Virus record (IMG/VR): IMGVR_UViG_2778261498_000010
Coordinates: 1 to 7,002 of that record
Source: a virus
Lineage: Duplodnaviria > Heunggongvirae > Uroviricota > Caudoviricetes
Strand: one strand, 5' to 3'
DNA length: 7,002 nucleotides
Shown here in pieces: positions 1 through 7,002 of this stretch; the first letter of the stretch is position 1, and each line of letters begins with the position of its first letter. Below the pieces are notes generated by a model, which ran no database searches, was not told the origin of the DNA, and saw only the letters and a list, made by a program, of their open reading frames with translations. The translations under genes were made by a program, and so were the position numbers.

Positions 1-465
1 ATGCGTTTCTGCCTTATTTTGATCACAGCACTGTTTCTGGCCGGGTGTAGCCACCATAAAGCACCGCCGCCAAATGCCAGACTTTCTGATTCGATTACCG
101 TTATTGCCGGTTTGAACGACCAGCTACAGAGCTGGCATGGCACGCCGTATCGTTATGGTGGCATGACGCGGCGCGGTGTGGACTGTTCGGGGTTTGTGGT
201 TGTGACGATGCGCGATCGTTTCGATTTGCAGCTGCCCCGAGAAACCAAAGAACAAGCCTCTATCGGCACGCAAATTGATAAAGACGAGTTGCTGCCTGGT
301 GACCTGGTCTTTTTCAAAACGGGCTCCGGACAAAATGGTTTGCATGTAGGTATTTACGATACCAACAACCAATTTATCCACGCCTCTACCAGCAAGGGAG
401 TGATGCGTTCCTCACTCGATAATGTTTATTGGCAGAAAAATTTCTGGCAGGCGAGACGAATCTAG
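1..465 (+). CDS. nlpC: NlpC/P60-family lipoprotein (predicted peptidoglycan endopeptidase)
   Basis: 154-codon ORF beginning at window base 1. N-terminal lipoprotein signal with lipobox LAGC. NlpC/P60 catalytic context DCSGF ... HVGIY ... IHAS. Recognised from memory as essentially E. coli NlpC. Promoter and RBS lie outside the window. Confidence 0.88.
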   Translation: MRFCLILITALFLAGCSHHKAPPPNARLSDSITVIAGLNDQLQSWHGTPYRYGGMTRRGVDCSGFVVVTMRDRFDLQLPRETKEQASIGTQIDKDELLPGDLVFFKTGSGQNGLHVGIYDTNNQFIHASTSKGVMRSSLDNVYWQKNFWQARRI

Positions 466-474
466 TATGTCGAA

Positions 475-507
475 AAATTGACGGCGATGATACATCGCCG
501 TCAATTT
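475..507. terminator. Perfect palindrome (15-bp arms, 3-nt spacer) just downstream of the nlpC stop; candidate intrinsic or bidirectional terminator, or protein-binding site
   Basis: Seen directly: aaattgacggcgatg-ata-catcgccgtcaattt. GC-rich stem core. Only a partial T-run follows on the plus strand (atttact); TTTTT follows on the minus strand. Confidence 0.4.
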
Positions 508-541
508 ACTCCAGAATACAGTAGTATTTTGCAGACAAAAA

Positions 542-578
542 TTCCGTAAATGGATTATTCGTTTATAATCAGGATAAT
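542..578 (+). promoter_or_regulatory. Candidate sigma70 promoter region for ydiV
   Basis: Consensus -10 hexamer TATAAT at 564-569 and a second -10-like GATAAT at 573-578 in an AT-rich intergenic region. No convincing -35. It would imply a 5' UTR of roughly 130 nt before the ydiV ATG at 712. Confidence 0.2.
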
Positions 579-711
579 CTAAAAAAAGGACCCCTGAAAA
601 AGTGGTTAACATGGAACAAATGAAAGTTACTCCTTCTGTAATTGTTATGTCTTATGGCCTCATCCCTTTTAGCCGGATACTGAAAAACATCCTTCGAGAG
701 GGACGGTTACC

Positions 712-1323
712 ATGAAGATTTTTTTGGAGAATCTTTATCATTCTGATTGCTATTTCCTGCCGATAAGAGATAACCAGCAAGACCTTGTCGGCGTTGAGTT
801 AATTACCCATTTCTCCAGTGAAGATGGTACGGTTCGTATACCGACGAGTCGGGTTATAGCGCAACTTACCGAGGAGCAACATTGGCAATTATTTTCTGAG
901 CAGTTGGAATTGCTAAAATCATGCCAACACTTTTTTATTCAACATAAACTCTTTGCCTGGCTTAATTTAACCCCGCAAGTGGCTACTTTATTATTAGACA
1001 GGGATAATTACGCGGGCGAACTATTAAAATATCCGTTTATTGAACTGTTGATTAATGAGAATTACCCGCATCTCGATGAAGGAAAAGATAATCGCGATCT
1101 TTTTTCCTTATCGCAAATGTATCCCCTTGTGTTAGGTAATTTGGGCGCAGGCAATAGCACAATGAAAGCGGTTTTTGATGGTCTTTTCACCCGCGTCATG
1201 CTGGATAAAAGTTTTATTCAGCAACAAATCACGCATCGCTCCTTCGAACCGTTTATTCGTGCGATCCAGGCGCAAATTTCCCCATGTTGCAATTGCATCA
1301 TCGCGGGGGGCATTGATATGTAA
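712..1323 (+). CDS. ydiV: EAL-like (degenerate) anti-FlhD4C2 factor YdiV; the ORF closes at 203 codons, apparently short at the C-terminus
   Basis: ORF with RBS-like GAGGGA 8 nt upstream of the ATG. Translation recognised as YdiV (degenerate EAL domain, IIAGGID in place of the usual AEGVET-type block). From memory the E. coli protein is ~237 aa, so ~34 C-terminal residues including the expected QG-containing end motif are missing from this frame. Synteny nlpC then ydiV is as in E. coli. Confidence 0.8.
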   Translation: MKIFLENLYHSDCYFLPIRDNQQDLVGVELITHFSSEDGTVRIPTSRVIAQLTEEQHWQLFSEQLELLKSCQHFFIQHKLFAWLNLTPQVATLLLDRDNYAGELLKYPFIELLINENYPHLDEGKDNRDLFSLSQMYPLVLGNLGAGNSTMKAVFDGLFTRVMLDKSFIQQQITHRSFEPFIRAIQAQISPCCNCIIAGGIDM

Positions 1324-1354
1324 CTTCGCGTTTTTTTCTGGGCTAATTGGCGCG

Positions 1355-1396
1355 CAATTCTGGGCGGAGAGAGCGCAACCAAAAAGCCCAGAATTG
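1355..1396. repeat. 11-bp perfect inverted repeat (caattctgggc / gcccagaattg) with 20-nt spacer; a third copy of the 8-mer ttctgggc lies at 1336-1343
   Basis: Seen directly. It sits in the interval between the end of the ydiV reading frame and the invertase stub. Confidence 0.5.
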
Positions 1397-1433
1397 GACG
1401 CTAAATTATTAGTCTCATACTGATGATTTACCC

Positions 1434-1529
1434 TCAAAAAATCAGCTCATATCCTGCACAGTTCAACGCATTGCGTTGTAAATCGGTGTTCTGGTCATTT
1501 GTTGATGCGCGTACATAGCCTATAAACAT
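1434..1529 (-). pseudogene. Serine invertase (Pin/Gin/Hin/Cin family) N-terminal stub: 31 codons then TGA
   Basis: Minus-strand translation from the ATG at 1529: MFIGYVRASTNDQNTDLQRNALNCAGYELIF*. It matches the extreme N-terminus of Din-family invertases, including the catalytic Ser context GYVRxSTxDQ. No downstream frame continues the family sequence. The ORF is below the six-frame track threshold, so it was found by hand. Confidence 0.8.
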
Positions 1530-1583
1530 GGTAGATCACCCTGACAAAAGCAGGAATGATGCCATTTGCTCGCTATTTCTGCC

Positions 1584-1609
1584 TTTTCATAAACGTTGGT
1601 TTGGGAGAA
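1584..1609. repeat. Right inversion crossover site (hix/gix-like, 26 bp)
   Basis: Read on the minus strand: TTCTCCCAAACC-AA-CGTTTATGAAAA. It matches the left site in 22 of 26 positions; the inner half-site and AA core are identical. It lies immediately upstream of the invertase stub start, as gixR lies before gin in Mu. Confidence 0.7.
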
Positions 1610-2095
1610 GGCTCTGCATTACCTGTTGGTGTCCCTGTTCCGTGGCCTTCAGCCACTCCGCCAACAGGCTGGCTGAAATGCAATGGTGCAGCTTTTTCTG
1701 CTGAAGAATACCCGGAACTGGCAAAAGTTTACCCGACAAATAAATTGCCTGATTTACGTGGTGAGTTTATTCGTGGCTGGGATGACGGGCGGGGGATTGA
1801 TACAGGTCGCTCTATTTTAAGTATTCAGGGGTATGCAACGGAGGATCATGCTCATGGATTACCGTCAAGATCCACGATTGTGACTGATGCAACGATTAAT
1901 TTCTATTTTGATGAAAGCTGGGTAAATAGTGGCACTGACATTATCAAAAGAGGAAACACAAACGATGCCGGATTACCAGCACCGGATTATGGAACCTTTA
2001 AAACATATAAACAATCAGTGGCTGGTTTAGGTGCCGCAGCCTCAGAAACGCGTCCGCGTAATATTGCATTTAACTATATCGTGAGGGCAGCCTGA
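1598..2095 (+). CDS. Alternative side tail fibre C-terminal cassette (S'v-type, tail-collar-like receptor-binding domain); promoterless, in the OFF orientation
   Basis: Coding begins in frame at the inner half of the right crossover site (NVGLGE). Tail-collar-like motif GWLKCNGAAF..YPEL...LPDLRGEFIRGWDDGRG. The six-frame track extends the ORF to 1556 (ATGATG), but those codons lie outside the invertible segment in the invertase promoter region and are probably not a real start. Stop overlaps the Tfa' start (TGATG). Confidence 0.75.
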   Translation, partial: GLGEGSALPVGVPVPWPSATPPTGWLKCNGAAFSAEEYPELAKVYPTNKLPDLRGEFIRGWDDGRGIDTGRSILSIQGYATEDHAHGLPSRSTIVTDATINFYFDESWVNSGTDIIKRGNTNDAGLPAPDYGTFKTYKQSVAGLGAAASETRPRNIAFNYIVRAA

Positions 2096-2697
2096 TGCAT
2101 AAAGCAATATTAAATAGTGAGCTCATTGCAACAAAGGCAGGGGATGTTACCGTTTATAACTATGATGGTGAAACACGGGAATATATTTCCACTTCAAATG
2201 AATATCTTGCCGTTGGTGTCGGCATTCCGGCATGTTCCTGTTTAGATGCCCCTGGCACACATAAGGCTGGTTATGCAATCTGCCGTTCTGCAGATTTTAA
2301 CTCATGGGAATATGTGCCAGACCATCGCGGTGAAACGGTCTATAGCACCAAAACAGGAGAATCAAAAGAAATCACCGCTCCGGGTGATTACCCTGAAAAT
2401 ACAACCACTATCGCCCCATTAACGCCATACGATAAATGGGATGGTGAGAAATGGGTGACCGATACTGAGGCACAGCATAGCGCCGCAGTAGATGCAGCAG
2501 AAGCACAGCGCCAGTCGCTGATTGATACTGCAATGGCTTCCATCAGTCTGATTCAACTGAAATTGCAGGCCGGACGTAAACTGACGCAGGCAGAAACAAC
2601 CCGGCTTAACGCTGTGCTGGATTACATTGACGCGGTGACGGCAACAGATACCAGCACCGCGCCGGATGTCATCTGGCCTGAACTGCCGGAGGCGTAG
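2095..2697 (+). CDS. Tail fibre assembly protein Tfa' (chaperone for the alternative cassette)
   Basis: 200-codon ORF whose start overlaps the cassette stop. C-terminus DTSTAPDVIWPELPEA is typical of the phage tail-fibre assembly (Tfa/U) family. Resembles e14 TfaE from memory. Confidence 0.85.
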   Translation: MHKAILNSELIATKAGDVTVYNYDGETREYISTSNEYLAVGVGIPACSCLDAPGTHKAGYAICRSADFNSWEYVPDHRGETVYSTKTGESKEITAPGDYPENTTTIAPLTPYDKWDGEKWVTDTEAQHSAAVDAAEAQRQSLIDTAMASISLIQLKLQAGRKLTQAETTRLNAVLDYIDAVTATDTSTAPDVIWPELPEA

Positions 2698-3109
2698 GCC
2701 ATTCAATATCTGGCGCACCGGAAGTATCGACCAGTTCCAGTGCGTCCAGGTAATCCAGCCACAAATTATATTGCGCCAGTTCGTCACCTTTCAGACGACC
2801 AATAGCCGCTTTACCAGGCCATTGTTTACTGTTCATATAATCGTTGGCCTGATTAATCAATTGCTGCTTCTCCAATTCGGCTGCAGCAATTTGTTCCTCA
2901 TGTGTTGGTGGTGGAATTTCAGACCATGCAGGAAAACCATTTTCTCCAGCGATACGGATTTTTCCTTTCGGCGGTAATCCGGAAAACTCAATATACACTT
3001 GCTCATCAACTTCAACAGCATCATCTGGCCATGAGTCAGCTTGAGTGTAATCCTCTTTCATCTCCAGCGGATAGAAAGAGTTTGTAGTCGCGGAATATAT
3101 GTAATTCAT
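2669..3109 (-). CDS. Tail fibre assembly protein Tfa (chaperone for the currently expressed fibre)
   Basis: 146-codon ORF with RBS GGAG 8 nt upstream of the ATG at 3109. N-terminus MNYIYSATTNSFYP and C-terminus DTSGAPDIEWPTPP are Tfa-family hallmarks. Its 3' end overlaps the convergent Tfa' by 29 bp. Confidence 0.85.
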   Translation of the reverse strand: MNYIYSATTNSFYPLEMKEDYTQADSWPDDAVEVDEQVYIEFSGLPPKGKIRIAGENGFPAWSEIPPPTHEEQIAAAELEKQQLINQANDYMNSKQWPGKAAIGRLKGDELAQYNLWLDYLDALELVDTSGAPDIEWPTPPAVQAR

Positions 3110-3130
3110 TTTTCACTCCATATAGCTAAA

Positions 3131-3775
3131 TTAACAGCCTAACGCTAAAAATGAAGCGCCGAGGCCAGGAGTACTGGCTCTGGATATAAATTTAACCGGG
3201 TCGGGACTAAAACCTGCACAGGCAATATAACCAACAGCCCCGCTATCTGGTGTGTAGTCTTGTGAGACCAAAACACGCAGACATCTGTTTGGAAATGCAA
3301 TCGGGAAATGGGTTACTACATCCTGTGCAATGCCTGGTGCGCCGATTGAGCCCCACTGAAGAATAAAACCTGATGGTAATTTTTGATATCCAGTACCTGA
3401 AACAGAAAGCGTGAAGCTACCCATATCAGGTATCTGATTCGCCCCTGTCCCTACATTCCTTTTAGCCGCTTCTCCCAAACCAAGGTTTTTGAGAGCCGTG
3501 TTCACCGTGCCATCCGATTTGATATCGCCAAACGGATTCTTGCGGCTTAACAGCAGCGCACGAAGCGCGGTAAGTAGCTGATCCGTTTTTTGGGGGTCAG
3601 GTTGAATATGTGCACTACCAAGAACATTAAGGAGTTCCTGCTGTAAATCACGGGTTGCCCCCTGCTGATTATTTAAATAATCAGCAGTTACGATGGTTCC
3701 TTCTATCCCCTGAGTGGGGTCACCATCATGAAACAATTGATCCGGTGTATTTATCGGGGGCATCAGATTTTGCAT
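3131..3775 (-). CDS. Side tail fibre protein (Stf): constant N-terminal ~98 residues plus currently fused variable C-terminal domain
   Basis: 214-codon ORF; the start ATG overlaps the upstream gp48 stop (TAATG). The left crossover site lies at codons ~94-102 (ALKNLGLGE). Size and position resemble e14 StfP. Followed by Tfa. Confidence 0.8.
3470..3495. repeat. Left inversion crossover site (hix/gix-like, 26 bp) inside the fibre gene
   Basis: Plus strand TTCTCCCAAACC-AA-GGTTTTTGAGAG. From memory this closely resembles hixL (TTCTTGAAAACCAAGGTTTTTGATAA) and gix. It is in inverted orientation relative to the site at 1584-1609. Confidence 0.7.
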
Positions 3776-4347
3776 TACTGCTCCTCCTTATATGTGAAAT
3801 GGCAATAAGTAAAAGCGGGTTTAAGGTCTTTAAATGTTTCTTCCAGTACAGGGGCACCAAAGGAAAGTAACGGTTCCCCGGCTGCAGATACTCCGGTTCT
3901 GAATCTGTAAGCTGGCGTTTTGCTTCCTGTGACATTAACCTGCCAAATCCATCGGGCATCTGTTATATAGAGACGATCACCACATCGGTTTACCCCCGTT
4001 CTGAATGGATGGAGTTCAGTAATTGTTATGGTGTACCCGAGGCTGACTGCAAGTTGTTTAAAATAAGGGATAGATAACCCACCAGTTGCAGCCATCTTTA
4101 TAAGAATATTTTCTCGGCGTTCCTGCTGTGTGGCACCATCGCGGGGTATTACTCCATACACTCGTTCCCAGTCAGACAGCGTCATGGATGCGTAAAATGG
4201 TGTGACAGATGCGAGCACTCGTGCAGCTGACGCTTTTACTTCATCCATAATGGCTGCTTCTGCGTTCAGTTCTGCTGAAATATATTTCCCGTTCGGGTCA
4301 TAGCTGACCGGTGGTAACATGGCACGAAATAAATCAACCGTATTCAT
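3775..4347 (-). CDS. gp48/YmfQ-like tail protein (DUF2313-type), upstream partner of the tail fibre
   Basis: 190-codon ORF between the baseplate J-like gene and the fibre gene, the position occupied by ymfQ in e14 and gp48 in Mu. GGAG-containing RBS. Family assignment from memory of YmfQ-like proteins. Confidence 0.7.
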
Positions 4348-4350
4348 GTA

Positions 4351-5430
4351 TTAACTCTCCCGGGGAAATGGCTGGATATCAATACTCCCCGGACGCAGCC
4401 ACTCCCATGTGGATTCATTGACAACTGCTTTTACATTATCTGACGGCATAATAATCCGCCGATCACTGACGCCAGAAATTAATGAAATCTGAGTTTCCAG
4501 TTGTGAAATAATTAATTCCTGCCCCGGTTCCAGTCGGTTCATAAAATCCGTGATAACTTCAGTTATCTGTGGTTTTATCTGTTCAACAGTAAGGCCACTG
4601 GTTTTTATTCTGACAACAAAATCAACGTTTTTTTTCGTTGGTGCCAGTACCATTGTATCCTTCGCCGTTACCGGGCGGACATCATTGATATGGGCCATCA
4701 CCGCGTTAATCAGCTCCTGTGACGGTAAATCATTTGCAGAAGTGATAACCACATCAACCGTACCGGGGCCACGACGTAACGGCTCCACGTATGCAGAGGT
4801 AACACCGTCAACTTCCAGCGCCCAGCGTTTGTAATCATATTTATTACCGCCAGCGGGCGGCCTGCGCAGAATATCCAGATAACGCGCCAGCAGGCCGGCG
4901 TCACTTTCCCTGTCCGTTCCGCCGGTCAGGGATTTAATCGTCACCGTGCTGTTGATGCCTTCCGGCGGGCTGACCAGCGTTGCCGTCTGCGTCGTGGATG
5001 CATTCGTCTGTGCACCCGTGGCGGTGCTTTTTACCGTCACCTCTGCGCTGCCTTCATCACCGATGGTGCAGTCTGCTGTGGTGGCCACGCTGACACCTTC
5101 ACCACGAATTTCCGCACCGGCTGGCAGCGTCTTACCGGGTGCGCCGGTAATCACTACCGGACCGGATGAGGCCGTTGCTTTTTTACGAAAAACATTGCGC
5201 GTACGACAGTGCAGCTCCAGATATTCAGGGTCAGCCGTGTCAGGAAACACCTGACGGAGGATCCATCCCTGATGCATATAAAGTCCGTCCGCCACGCCGG
5301 ATACGGCATTTGCACGAATGCGGTAATCGCTGTCAGCGCTGGTGTCGATGGTTTCTCCCGGCAGGGCGTTAGCGATATCACGTAGCTGGCGTTCTGTGTT
5401 TTCAGCAACGCCCGGAACAGGAAACGGCAT
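4351..5430 (-). CDS. Baseplate J-like protein (Mu gp47 / P2 gpJ family)
   Basis: 359-codon ORF with size, position and sequence character typical of baseplate J-like wedge proteins. Start overlaps the upstream gp46 stop (TAATG). Confidence 0.8.
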   Translation of the reverse strand: MPFPVPGVAENTERQLRDIANALPGETIDTSADSDYRIRANAVSGVADGLYMHQGWILRQVFPDTADPEYLELHCRTRNVFRKKATASSGPVVITGAPGKTLPAGAEIRGEGVSVATTADCTIGDEGSAEVTVKSTATGAQTNASTTQTATLVSPPEGINSTVTIKSLTGGTDRESDAGLLARYLDILRRPPAGGNKYDYKRWALEVDGVTSAYVEPLRRGPGTVDVVITSANDLPSQELINAVMAHINDVRPVTAKDTMVLAPTKKNVDFVVRIKTSGLTVEQIKPQITEVITDFMNRLEPGQELIISQLETQISLISGVSDRRIIMPSDNVKAVVNESTWEWLRPGSIDIQPFPRES

Positions 5431-5780
5431 TACATAATCCTCACAGGGTGTTCAAATGTCTGCGGTGTGCCCGCGTTATCCGTGACGGTGATTAACAGCA
5501 ACAGCCAGCCGCGCTGACCCGGTTTCGTGTCAACAGTAATGGATTTTGCCCGCCCGTCATTGAGCAGGGGCTGAAGTGCCTGGCTGGCATACTGCGCCGC
5601 CAGCCAGTGAACACGGGAAACGTCTTTTTCCCGCTTCAGCTCGTGCAGGCGTGACCCCAGCAACGCATCCGCCCAGTAACTGCCAAGCGGTGTCGCCAGT
5701 CGCAGATAAACCGCGTTATGGAGTGTGTAAATCCGGCGGCGTTCGTAGTCGCCGGTTGCAGGTGAAATCGTCTGGTCCAT
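5430..5780 (-). CDS. Mu gp46-like small baseplate protein
   Basis: 116-codon ORF between the V/gp45-like and J/gp47-like genes, the conserved position and size for gp46-family proteins. Confidence 0.65.
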   Translation of the reverse strand: MDQTISPATGDYERRRIYTLHNAVYLRLATPLGSYWADALLGSRLHELKREKDVSRVHWLAAQYASQALQPLLNDGRAKSITVDTKPGQRGWLLLLITVTDNAGTPQTFEHPVRIM

Positions 5781-5833
5781 GCCGCCAGTCTGGCAGCATG
5801 GACAGGTCAGAATCAGGTGAGGGTGTTCAGCAC

Positions 5834-6487
5834 TTAATTAACCGGCGTGTCAGACATGCCGTGTGGGGTCGGGTGTTTGTGCGTTCCGATTTTAACGCCA
5901 TTAATGGTGACGTCAACGGAGGTAATCACACCGCTTGTGTGGTTGATGTTGCCTTCAAAGGTGGCGGCGTATTCATTACCTCCACGGATGGCCATGCCAC
6001 CGTTGCCGGTGATTTTGCCTTCCACCGTCAGCCTGTTGCTGGCTGTCAGTAACGGTGTCGTGAATGCGGCGCTTTCCTCTGCCTCAACCTCATAGCGTTT
6101 GCATTTCACGCGATAAACATCACATTCATGCTCAATAACCCGCCCGCGCTTCAGTACGATTTTCGCGCCTTCATCGGTATACAGGGCCACCTCGCCGGGT
6201 TTCAGTTCCGTCAGGCGATATGCGCCGTGCTCGGTGGCCACGACGACGGTATGGGAGGTATTACCGTTCAGCGGAACAGCAATACCCATTGAACCGGGCG
6301 GCGGGGATGTGGTGAGGCCGTAATGCTGAAAATACTCCGCACCGTCCAGCTGTTCGCCTGCCAGCCCGTTCAGCTGGAGAAGCTGTACTTTGGTCGAACT
6401 GTCCACCGTACCGGTCACCACCCTGAATGCCTGGCGAACGGCGACCAGTGCCTGCTGTATGCGCTGATTAACCTTGTCCCACATCAT
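5834..6487 (-). CDS. Baseplate assembly protein V / Mu gp45-like (baseplate spike)
   Basis: 217-codon ORF. C-terminal ...GVKIGTHKHPTPHGMSDTPVN and central beta-rich region are typical of the gpV/gp45 spike family. Start ATGATG overlaps the gp44-like stop. Confidence 0.75.
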   Translation of the reverse strand: MMWDKVNQRIQQALVAVRQAFRVVTGTVDSSTKVQLLQLNGLAGEQLDGAEYFQHYGLTTSPPPGSMGIAVPLNGNTSHTVVVATEHGAYRLTELKPGEVALYTDEGAKIVLKRGRVIEHECDVYRVKCKRYEVEAEESAAFTTPLLTASNRLTVEGKITGNGGMAIRGGNEYAATFEGNINHTSGVITSVDVTINGVKIGTHKHPTPHGMSDTPVN

Positions 6488-7002
6488 TTCTCCCAGACCT
6501 TAACAATGGCGACCTCTTTTTTCTTTTTGCCCCTGCGGTGATGGCGTTTCTTCTCGCGCGGGAAGGCGTCAGGTATCCACACGCCGTCCTCCTTAAAGCG
6601 AAGCCGGGTTGTCTGCCCGTTCCGGCCTCCGCTGAACTCACGCCCCATCAGGAAAAAGATGGCATCAATGCCGTGGAGTTCGCTGACAATCCGCACCCGC
6701 TGACCGGGCTGCCACAGAACACCATCTGCCGTGCGATGACCTGCAACCAGTGCGACGATATCCAGCCCCGACAGGCGGGCATCACTCATCATTTTTTTTG
6801 CGCGCCAGCTCACCTGCTCCAGATTGCTGGTGTCGCCCTGGGTGATAATCTGCGGGCGGTAATAATCCACGGTGGGGTCGGTGGCCACGGCTTTCATGTT
6901 ATGAATGCCTGTCTGACCACTGTCCGTATTACCGCTGTCCTGCCCGGATAATGTGCGCACGCTGCCGTCCTCGTTCCAGATATCCAGCGGCACCACGGCC
7001 AC
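6484..7002 (-). CDS. gp44/gpD-like baseplate hub protein, C-terminal part only (5' end beyond the window)
   Basis: Open frame running to the window edge with no start inside the window. Its position immediately upstream of the V/gp45-like gene matches the Mu gp44 / P2 gpD slot. Assignment rests mainly on gene order. Confidence 0.55.
   Translation of the reverse strand: MAVVPLDIWNEDGSVRTLSGQDSGNTDSGQTGIHNMKAVATDPTVDYYRPQIITQGDTSNLEQVSWRAKKMMSDARLSGLDIVALVAGHRTADGVLWQPGQRVRIVSELHGIDAIFFLMGREFSGGRNGQTTRLRFKEDGVWIPDAFPREKKRHHRRGKKKKEVAIVKVWEK

Follow-up and report, generated by a model that had tools for sequence, protein, structure and literature searches.

The window analysed here is a stretch of 7,002 nucleotides of viral DNA (positions 1 to 7,002 of the IMG/VR record IMGVR_UViG_2778261498_000010). 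Its positions 1319-7002 are read as 5.7 kb from the right-hand (S) end of a transposable Mu-like myovirus prophage inserted in the Escherichia coli gene ydiV/rflP, and the probability of this reading is put at about 85%. The border with the host DNA is sharp. Positions 1-1318 are 97.5% identical to the nlpC-rflP region of K-12, and the alignment stops exactly at 1318. The junction 1318|1319 falls in codon 203 of the 237-codon ydiV/rflP (RflP of K-12 has 237 amino acids). The gene is kept to residue 202 of 237, its last 35 codons are lost, and a final Met codon and the stop are supplied by phage DNA. From 1319 the element reads TGTAACTTCGCGTTTTTTTCTGGGC..., with TGTAACTTCGCG as its very start. 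The right end TGTAACTTCGCG... was found joined to at least ten different E. coli host loci, which are ydiV, eutC (strain E2348/69), ynfE (47-1826), scpC (TUM1881), the pta region, the hokB region, yeiP, melA, hyfB and an arc locus. Three copies of the motif GCCCAGAA were located at 1336-1343, 1358-1365 and 1386-1393, against an expectation of 0.29 for the window, and all of them sit in the terminal 118 bp, within 75 bp of the terminus. The complete relatives carry the same motif 18-25 nt from both termini, and their termini are TG...CA. On this DNA evidence, a conserved terminus with a repeated motif at many loci is the signature of a transposable phage and not of site-specific integration. 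The insertion into ydiV/rflP would have been made by DDE transposition. A set of 5,426 complete E. coli genomes contained no instance of it.

The first-pass annotation of this DNA, made from the letters alone, had described a Mu-type baseplate operon joined to an e14-type fibre cassette beside ydiV. It was silent on the end at 1319, on the crossover sites and on the truncation of the invertase. The likeness to e14 stood, and the hybrid framing did not. The DNA identity to e14 is 94.7% over 1437-2846 (the 5' part of pinE, stfE, tfaE and the 3' part of tfaP) and 91% over 3461-3583. The silent fibre tip Stf' is 96.6% identical to StfE, and its chaperone Tfa' is 98% identical to TfaE. Therefore, the fibre and switch portion does resemble the P region of e14, as had been proposed. 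The likeness is split, however. The half near the invertase, in which pinE is truncated, reaches 94.7%, whereas the expressed half reaches just 37-63% at the protein level: the expressed fibre tip is 37% identical to StfP, and Tfa is 63% identical to TfaP over amino acids 55-146. e14 has a J-like gene (jayE) and a gp48-like gene (ymfQ) directly upstream of its own P region, and the baseplate proteins of the window are 26-31% identical to JayE and YmfQ. The likeness is limited to an exchangeable cassette that is also found in P2-like phages, and the fibre cassette as a whole recurs with 99% identity outside Mu-like elements. The picture of a Mu baseplate joined to an e14 cassette thus gives way to another, in which the baseplate genes, the S-U/U'-S' segment and the invertase form the native right end of a Mu-type phage.

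It follows from these data that an e14-type element (lambdoid and integrase-dependent), or a recent hybrid between a Mu-like phage and e14, is extremely improbable. The two blocks of DNA identity and the crossover repeats, which are identical to those of e14, speak for such an element. They are all found within the exchangeable cassette, while the low identity of the baseplate proteins and of the expressed fibre speaks against it. The earlier statement that the element is not at icd was correct: it sits in ydiV, no integrase gene accompanies it, and it joins the host DNA through a transposon end common to copies at many loci. The element lies in ydiV and not in icd because it was placed there by transposition. 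An e14-type reading is already contradicted by the junction and by the relatives.

The Mu-like reading also accounts for the genes beyond the fibre cassette. The late gene order of Mu, P(gp44)-gp45-gp46-gp47-gp48-S-U, is present in the window when the Pfam families are set beside the Mu annotation. The first-pass annotation had proposed a tightly coupled order from a gp44-like gene to Tfa, and this order was borne out by the same comparison; the profile check gave the predicted family for every open reading frame (ORF), none being unrelated. All of the coupling signals that had been described were recovered at exactly the same positions on the minus strand. The stop of gp44 and the start of gp45 overlap as ATGA at 6484-6487, gp46 and gp47 are joined by TAATG at 5428-5432, gp47 and gp48 are separated by 3 nt (TAC, 4348-4350), and gp48 and stf are joined by TAATG at 3773-3777. 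The 5' end of gp45 reads ATGATG, and its overlap with gp44 is 4 nt from the first ATG or 1 nt from the second, the latter being the RefSeq start in the relatives (216 amino acids). The gap between gp45 and gp46 is 53 nt (5781-5833). The gp44-like gene is cut by the contig end at 7002 and has a full length of 403 amino acids in the relatives; the GTG start listed for it at 7002 is an artefact of the window end. In the relatives, genes for the DNA-circularisation protein, the tape measure and the sheath lie upstream of gp44. The gp47-like protein is 33% identical to gp47 of Mu, and among phages it is 49.6% identical to that of Klebsiella phage ST405-OXA48phi1.1, 43.8% to Mannheimia vB_MhM_3927AP2 and 42.3% to Haemophilus SuMu. 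The gp48-like protein is 27% identical to gp48 of Mu and 26% to YmfQ. The coupled minus-strand late operon encodes the hub, the spike and the wedges (homologues of gp44-48), followed by Stf and its chaperone Tfa, and its transcription would come from a Mor/C-type promoter beyond the window. The coordinates of all features are given in Table 1.

Table 1. Features of the 7,002-nt window, ordered by position, with the basis of each assignment.
Feature	Position	Strand	Basis or remark
nlpC	1-465	+	host gene (ORF list)
ydiV/rflP (anti-FlhDC factor), insertion target, truncated	712..1323	+	K-12 alignment
GATA, predicted copy of the 4-bp target-site duplication	1315..1318	.	inference from five relatives
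Prophage right end (attR-like)	1319..1436	+	starts 5'-TG; three GCCCAGAA repeats, putative transposase-binding sites
Serine-invertase stub, 31 codons + stop, MFIGYVRASTNDQNTDLQRNALNCAGYELIF*	1529-1434	-	translation; no invertase function possible
Predicted Fis-dependent recombinational enhancer	1445..1507	-	motif scan
Stf', silent alternative fibre C-terminus with its own short ORF head	1556..2095	+	Pfam Collar E=5e-15
Invertase-proximal 26-bp crossover site, TTCTCCCAAACC AA CGTTTATGAAAA	1584..1609	-	includes TTGGTTTGGGAGAAGG, the repeat of the e14 P segment (PMC12529663)
Invertible fibre segment of 1,886 bp, counterpart of Mu G and e14 P	1597..3482	.	bounded by two inverted sites
Tfa', assembly chaperone cognate to Stf'	2095..2697	+	Pfam Caudo_TAP E=6e-33
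Tfa, assembly chaperone of the expressed fibre	2669..3109	-	Pfam Caudo_TAP E=1.5e-37
Stf, expressed tail fibre, 214 aa	3131..3775	-	Pfam Gp53-like_C E=2e-14
Crossover site inside stf, TTCTCCCAAACC AA GGTTTTTGAGAG	3470..3495	+	pix/gix type, 26 bp
gp48/YmfQ-like baseplate wedge protein	3775..4347	-	Pfam Phage_Mu_Gp48 E=1e-29
gp47/J-like baseplate wedge protein	4351..5430	-	Pfam Baseplate_J E=1.5e-67
gp46-like baseplate protein	5430..5780	-	Pfam GP46 E=6e-18
gp45/V-like baseplate spike protein	5834..6487	-	Pfam Phage_Mu_Gp45 E=9e-24; weaker Phage_spike match
gp44/P-like baseplate hub protein, C-terminal 172 codons	6484..7002	-	Pfam NMB1110-like_C / GpP 4th domain E=1e-32, NMB1110_3rd

The target-site duplication was determined from the relatives. 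Five complete prophages (in E2348/69, TUM1881, tcmA_3, 2824 and 47-1826) are flanked by host duplications of 4 bp, which read AGTG, GATA, TCTC, GATG and CAAA. This length was checked for two of them against the intact eutC and scpC of K-12. A duplication of 5 bp with shifted ends was considered and is ruled out, as TUM1881, 2824 and 47-1826 permit only 4 bp. Mu duplicates 5 bp and B3 duplicates 6 bp, and a duplication of 5/6 bp has been used as a recognition feature of transposable prophages (PMC8705779). By comparison, the transposase of this lineage appears to make 4-bp target duplications and thus to depart from the canonical length. In the case of the ydiV insertion, one junction lies inside the window and the duplication length of 4 bp comes from the relatives. 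A complete copy is predicted to span ~36 kb and to finish at a left end GCCCAGAATTGA(A/T)CACTACCCCACA, after which GATA and CGGCAGAAAT... (the 3' part of ydiV) and then selO would follow. Pipelines for finding prophage ends that are set to 5 or 6 bp could miss prophages that duplicate 4 bp.

The extent of the element had been left undecided in the first-pass annotation between a full prophage, a decaying remnant and a tail-only structure. The source contig NLVE01000066.1 (GCA_002510335.1) ends at 7002 inside gp44, and 5.7 kb of the element is visible. The relatives supply the rest. The prophage of E2348/69 is ~35.7 kb. Its left part encodes a repressor-like protein, a ner-like protein, a MuA-like transposase, an AAA ATPase (MuB-like), Mor, holins and lysozyme. 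Next come the terminase, portal, protease, major head protein, sheath, tape measure and DNA-circularisation protein, and then the genes of the window. Four further relatives have the same left end, and the transposase and ATPase genes lie next to the repressor/ner region in all complete relatives examined. The closest copy of 1319-7002 was found at 9486-15169 of contig AATPJR010000028.1 (GCA_013048125.1), with 99.95% identity (3 mismatches in 5,684 bp). It sits at another locus, near arginine-deiminase genes, and there the intact gp44, gpN, tape-measure, sheath and head genes lie upstream. Such near-identity at two loci implies, on comparison of the two copies, that this phage has moved very recently.

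From these data, the copy in ydiV is likely to be a complete prophage. The alternatives of a remnant in decay and of a tail-only (tailocin-like) structure are together quite improbable. A remnant would agree with the absence of gin and mom functions and with the contig end, which puts the head genes, the transposase and the left end of the ydiV copy beyond view and so weighs against completeness. However, the nine ORFs of the window are intact and equal in length to those of the complete relatives. Head, terminase and transposase genes are present in every complete relative examined, the 99.95% copy has contiguous tape-measure, sheath and head genes, and contig breaks at or inside the phage fit repeated sequence and not deletion. 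The tail-only element is rejected for the lineage, since the relatives including the 99.95% copy have head genes upstream. As a separate observation on the assemblies, three independent drafts break at or in the phage, namely the window at 7002 (in gp44) and the others at ~1348 (in the terminus) and ~3462 (near a crossover site), and a Logan contig from SRR3987537 stops ~25 bp into the phage end. The three assembly breaks fit repeated copies or mixed orientations in the samples.

The lineage includes the prophages of E2348/69, tcmA_3, E423, TUM1881, 47-1826, 2824 and others. The junction of the phage end with the invertase stub was detected in 20 of the 5,426 complete E. coli genomes and on three IMG/VR contigs, and an exact search of the GTDB representatives (one genome per species) gave no match. 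When 1319-7002 was compared with isolated phages by megablast, the fibre cassette alone was matched (in P2-like phages and others) and the baseplate region found no match. The eutC prophage of E2348/69 shares 95-99% DNA identity with the window from the constant part of the fibre gene to gp44, together with an identical right end and an identical 31-codon stub. The E2348/69-lineage prophages differ from the window in their insertion sites and in their fibre cassettes and/or the orientation of these. Public genomes have included this lineage from the sequencing of E2348/69 onwards, and its prophage end is ordinary in kind.

The tail fibre gene of the element is organised as a switch. Stf consists of a constant part (Sc; codons 1 to ~98, 3483-3775) and a variable gp53-like part (Sv; 3131-3482). 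Its N-terminus is 32% identical to that of Mu S, and the crossover core lies at codon 98 within the motif NLGLGE. An inverted repeat of 24 nt with 92% complementarity was detected at 1587-1610 and 3469-3492, and the two 26-bp sites contain the repeats reported as the bounds of the e14 P segment (PMC12529663). The two Caudo_TAP genes point in opposite directions, one for each fibre tip. When the segment 1597-3482 was inverted in silico, Sc was placed in frame with the collar-type tip, giving a fibre of 264 amino acids. The orientation of the segment would therefore choose the receptor-binding C-terminus of the fibre. Its present state is Sc with the gp53-like tip; after inversion Sc would join the StfE-like collar tip, which would be paired with the TfaE-like chaperone. 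The silent ORF starts with an ATG of its own, and its 14-codon head, MMPFARYFCLFINV (1556-1597), precedes the crossover site, an arrangement also seen in e14 stfE. For e14, the equivalent chimeric product StfE2 was reported to block the adsorption of T2 (PMC12529663). By analogy with StfE2, the StfE-like ORF, if expressed from the prophage, might keep other phages from adsorbing.

The invertase gene next to this segment is reduced to a stub. The stub is 90% identical to amino acids 1-31 of PinE and 81% identical to Gin. The DNA homology to e14 pinE stops at 1437, and the 118-bp transposon end follows directly. This 93-bp invertase remnant, annotated as a pseudogene, is the same in all relatives examined, and the annotation of the complete E2348/69 prophage contains no recombinase gene. 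By its gene content the lineage, unlike Mu, P1 and e14, is without an invertase of its own. The enhancers of the DNA invertase family reportedly lie in the 5' portion of the invertase coding sequence, in the accounts of Kahmann 1985, Johnson & Simon 1985 and Huber 1985. DNA invertases depend on an enhancer in cis to which Fis is bound (PMC4513852). In the Hin system this enhancer spans 65 bp, has a Fis site at each end, lies ~100 bp from hixL and has a spacer with ATTTA and TAATG (PMC3798978). A prediction based on this Hin geometry (PMC3798978) and on a simple scan for the Fis motif placed two candidate Fis sites in the stub at 1493-1507 and 1445-1459. They are 48 bp apart, with GATTTACAACGCAATG between them and a spacer of the form ATTTA...CAATG, so that the predicted geometry matches the Hin enhancer. 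According to the motif scan, the distances of the candidate sites from the crossover core are 96.5 and 144.5 bp, alike in the window, in Mu gin and in e14 pinE. The homology of the stub reaches 160 bp from the core, just past the distal candidate site, and therefore the whole predicted enhancer is retained. We infer that the stub has survived because of the predicted cis-acting Fis enhancer inside it.

Several observations bear on whether the segment still flips. When the prophage of E2348/69 is set beside those of tcmA_3 and E423, the flanks run collinear with 99.5-99.7% identity, and a homologous segment of 1,921 bp is 99.6-99.7% identical yet inverted, with breakpoints inside both sites. 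Both of these natural orientations encode intact fibres. An apparent frameshift in the inverted fibre gene of tcmA_3 and of E423 is ruled out, as the fused ORF is intact (253 amino acids). TUM1881 and 2824 carry the cassette type of the window in the opposite orientation. In the simplest reading, the inversion post-dates the loss of the invertase, because all members share one truncation point, and hence it would be catalysed in trans. A precedent is PinQ of the Qin prophage, which inverts the P segment of e14 (PMC12529663). We lean, without great confidence, towards flipping that is catalysed by invertases of the Pin/Gin family from other prophages in the same cell. The segment would be inverted by such a Pin-family invertase acting with Fis on the retained enhancer. 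Gin, Cin, Pin and Hin are interchangeable. In the annotation of the relatives by PGAP/RefSeq, pieces of the fibre gene are mislabelled as 'integrase' or as partial pseudogenes.

The following points weigh against a switch that is still flipped. The assembly of the window crosses both sites in a single orientation, and the evidence for inversion is a comparison between strains. A megablast search of tcmA_3 found pinE-like sequence in one place and no second one, and therefore a more distant invertase would be needed, or the flip took place in an earlier host. The differences in orientation could also come from cassette replacement or from RecA acting on the short inverted repeats. As for the enhancer, the proximal candidate Fis site has a weak score and starts with C and not G, the sites are motif predictions, and their conservation, as they lie in homologous coding DNA, adds no independent support.

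In a rival reading, the fibre segment would be a frozen fossil that has not inverted since the invertase was lost. Its variation would then come from inversion before the truncation, from RecA recombination between inverted repeats of 19-26 bp, or from replacement of cassettes through homologous recombination with e14-like or P2-like prophages. Such a fossil agrees with the lack of an invertase in cis and with the single pinE-like place of tcmA_3. It also agrees with the fact that cassettes do get swapped, as is seen from the silent half (94.7% to e14) beside the baseplate proteins (26-31%) and from the cassette at 99% identity in non-Mu contexts. However, the truncation point is identical in all members examined, so the truncation is older than their divergence, and prophages that are 99.6% identical differ by a clean inversion with breakpoints in the sites and both products in frame. 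Besides, conservation extends to both 26-bp sites and to the stub with its predicted enhancer, and heterologous Pin recombinases invert such segments in trans (PMC12529663). A frozen segment is thus unlikely, and flipping in trans is preferred.

Two other E. coli genomes show variants of the same cassette. In PCP06173, at 7539-10236, the fibre cassette (99.2%) stands as an orphan without baseplate genes, flanked by an intact pinE on one side and a 41-codon recombinase stub on the other. This stub is a second, independent one that keeps the 5' end of an invertase. In 47-1826, at 20239-22613, there are three crossover-type sites (20274, 20713 and 22588) and two tandem silent fibre tips. The arrangement is a multi-site, shufflon-like version of the fibre switch.

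If trans flipping is combined with the other traits, a non-autonomous host-range switch is obtained, in which the lineage has shed its invertase, has kept just the cis parts that inversion requires (the two pix sites and the stub enhancer), is flipped by other prophages and makes 4-bp target duplications. This combined proposal is tentative, with somewhat less than an even chance. Such a switch would resemble, by analogy, a non-autonomous transposon that depends on a helper. If it is true, a natural host-range switch relies on the recombinases of other prophages, which adds to the cross-prophage activity of Pin (PMC12529663), and the choice of fibre depends on the community of resident prophages. 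A limited literature search found no paper describing either 4-bp duplication or a switch that still flips without an invertase. Nevertheless, both are modest variants of known systems, and the general picture of Mu-like phages is unchanged. For the host, the disrupted ydiV/rflP is a regulator of flagellar gene expression, and an effect on the regulation of motility is possible. For annotation, an apparent e14/Mu hybrid is explained as the S-end of a transposable prophage.

Some features of the window touch neither the ends nor the switch. The guanine plus cytosine content is 0.57 over 5430-7002, 0.53 over 4350-5430 and 0.46 over 3483-4347 (46% in gp48 and the fibre region). The fall across gp47 and gp48 suggests a recombination (mosaic) joint between a baseplate module and a gp48-fibre module. 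An Rfam scan of the whole window gave no family above the threshold. A scan for sigma-70 promoters over 1300-3900 found fewer sites than in shuffled sequence, and no promoter is claimed.

Among the known systems, the right end of Mu is a close model. It has the same gene order and the same families (gp44-gp49, U, U' and S') and the same layout, Sc | Sv-U / U'-Sv' | gin. In both, a constant fibre part is combined with alternative variable parts in an invertible segment between 26-bp inverted sites, the distance from the crossover core to the ATG of the invertase is 67 bp, the ends are TG...CA, and transposition goes into many loci. On the other hand, the proteins of the lineage are 25-36% identical to those of Mu, a 31-codon invertase stub is found here and com/mom are absent. 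The crossover lies at fibre codon 98 here and at ~170 in Mu, the fibre here is much shorter (214 amino acids), and the target duplications of the relatives are 4 bp as against 5 bp. Sp18 of O157:H7 Sakai, another E. coli prophage of the transposable Mu-like kind, has its genes in the same general order. However, it belongs to a different lineage, with an amino acid identity of 25-36%; its DNA invertase is intact, a mom-like gene has been kept, and its layout is closer to Mu. Sp18 was considered as the parent lineage and is ruled out by this protein identity and by its intact invertase. The SuMu/FluMu-type phages are the nearest isolated phages by gp47 (42.3-49.6%) and are still distant.

The P region of e14 (stfP-tfaP-tfaE-stfE-pinE) shares with the window, besides the crossover repeats and the upstream J-like and gp48-like genes, the short-fibre architecture and a convergent overlap of 29 bp between the two tfa genes. 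The differences are that e14 lies at icd with int/xis (intE/xisE) and an intact pinE, whereas here the locus is ydiV and a stub is found. The expressed tip of the window is a different, gp53-like variant, and the baseplate remnants of e14 are just 26-31% identical. Lastly, the invertasome of Hin, Gin, Cin and Pin has its counterpart in the two 26-bp sites with an AA/TT core and in the predicted enhancer of 63 bp, whose Fis-like sites are 48 bp apart and ~90-150 bp from the crossover site. It differs in that the catalytic protein here is not encoded by the element, and the cis parts alone remain.

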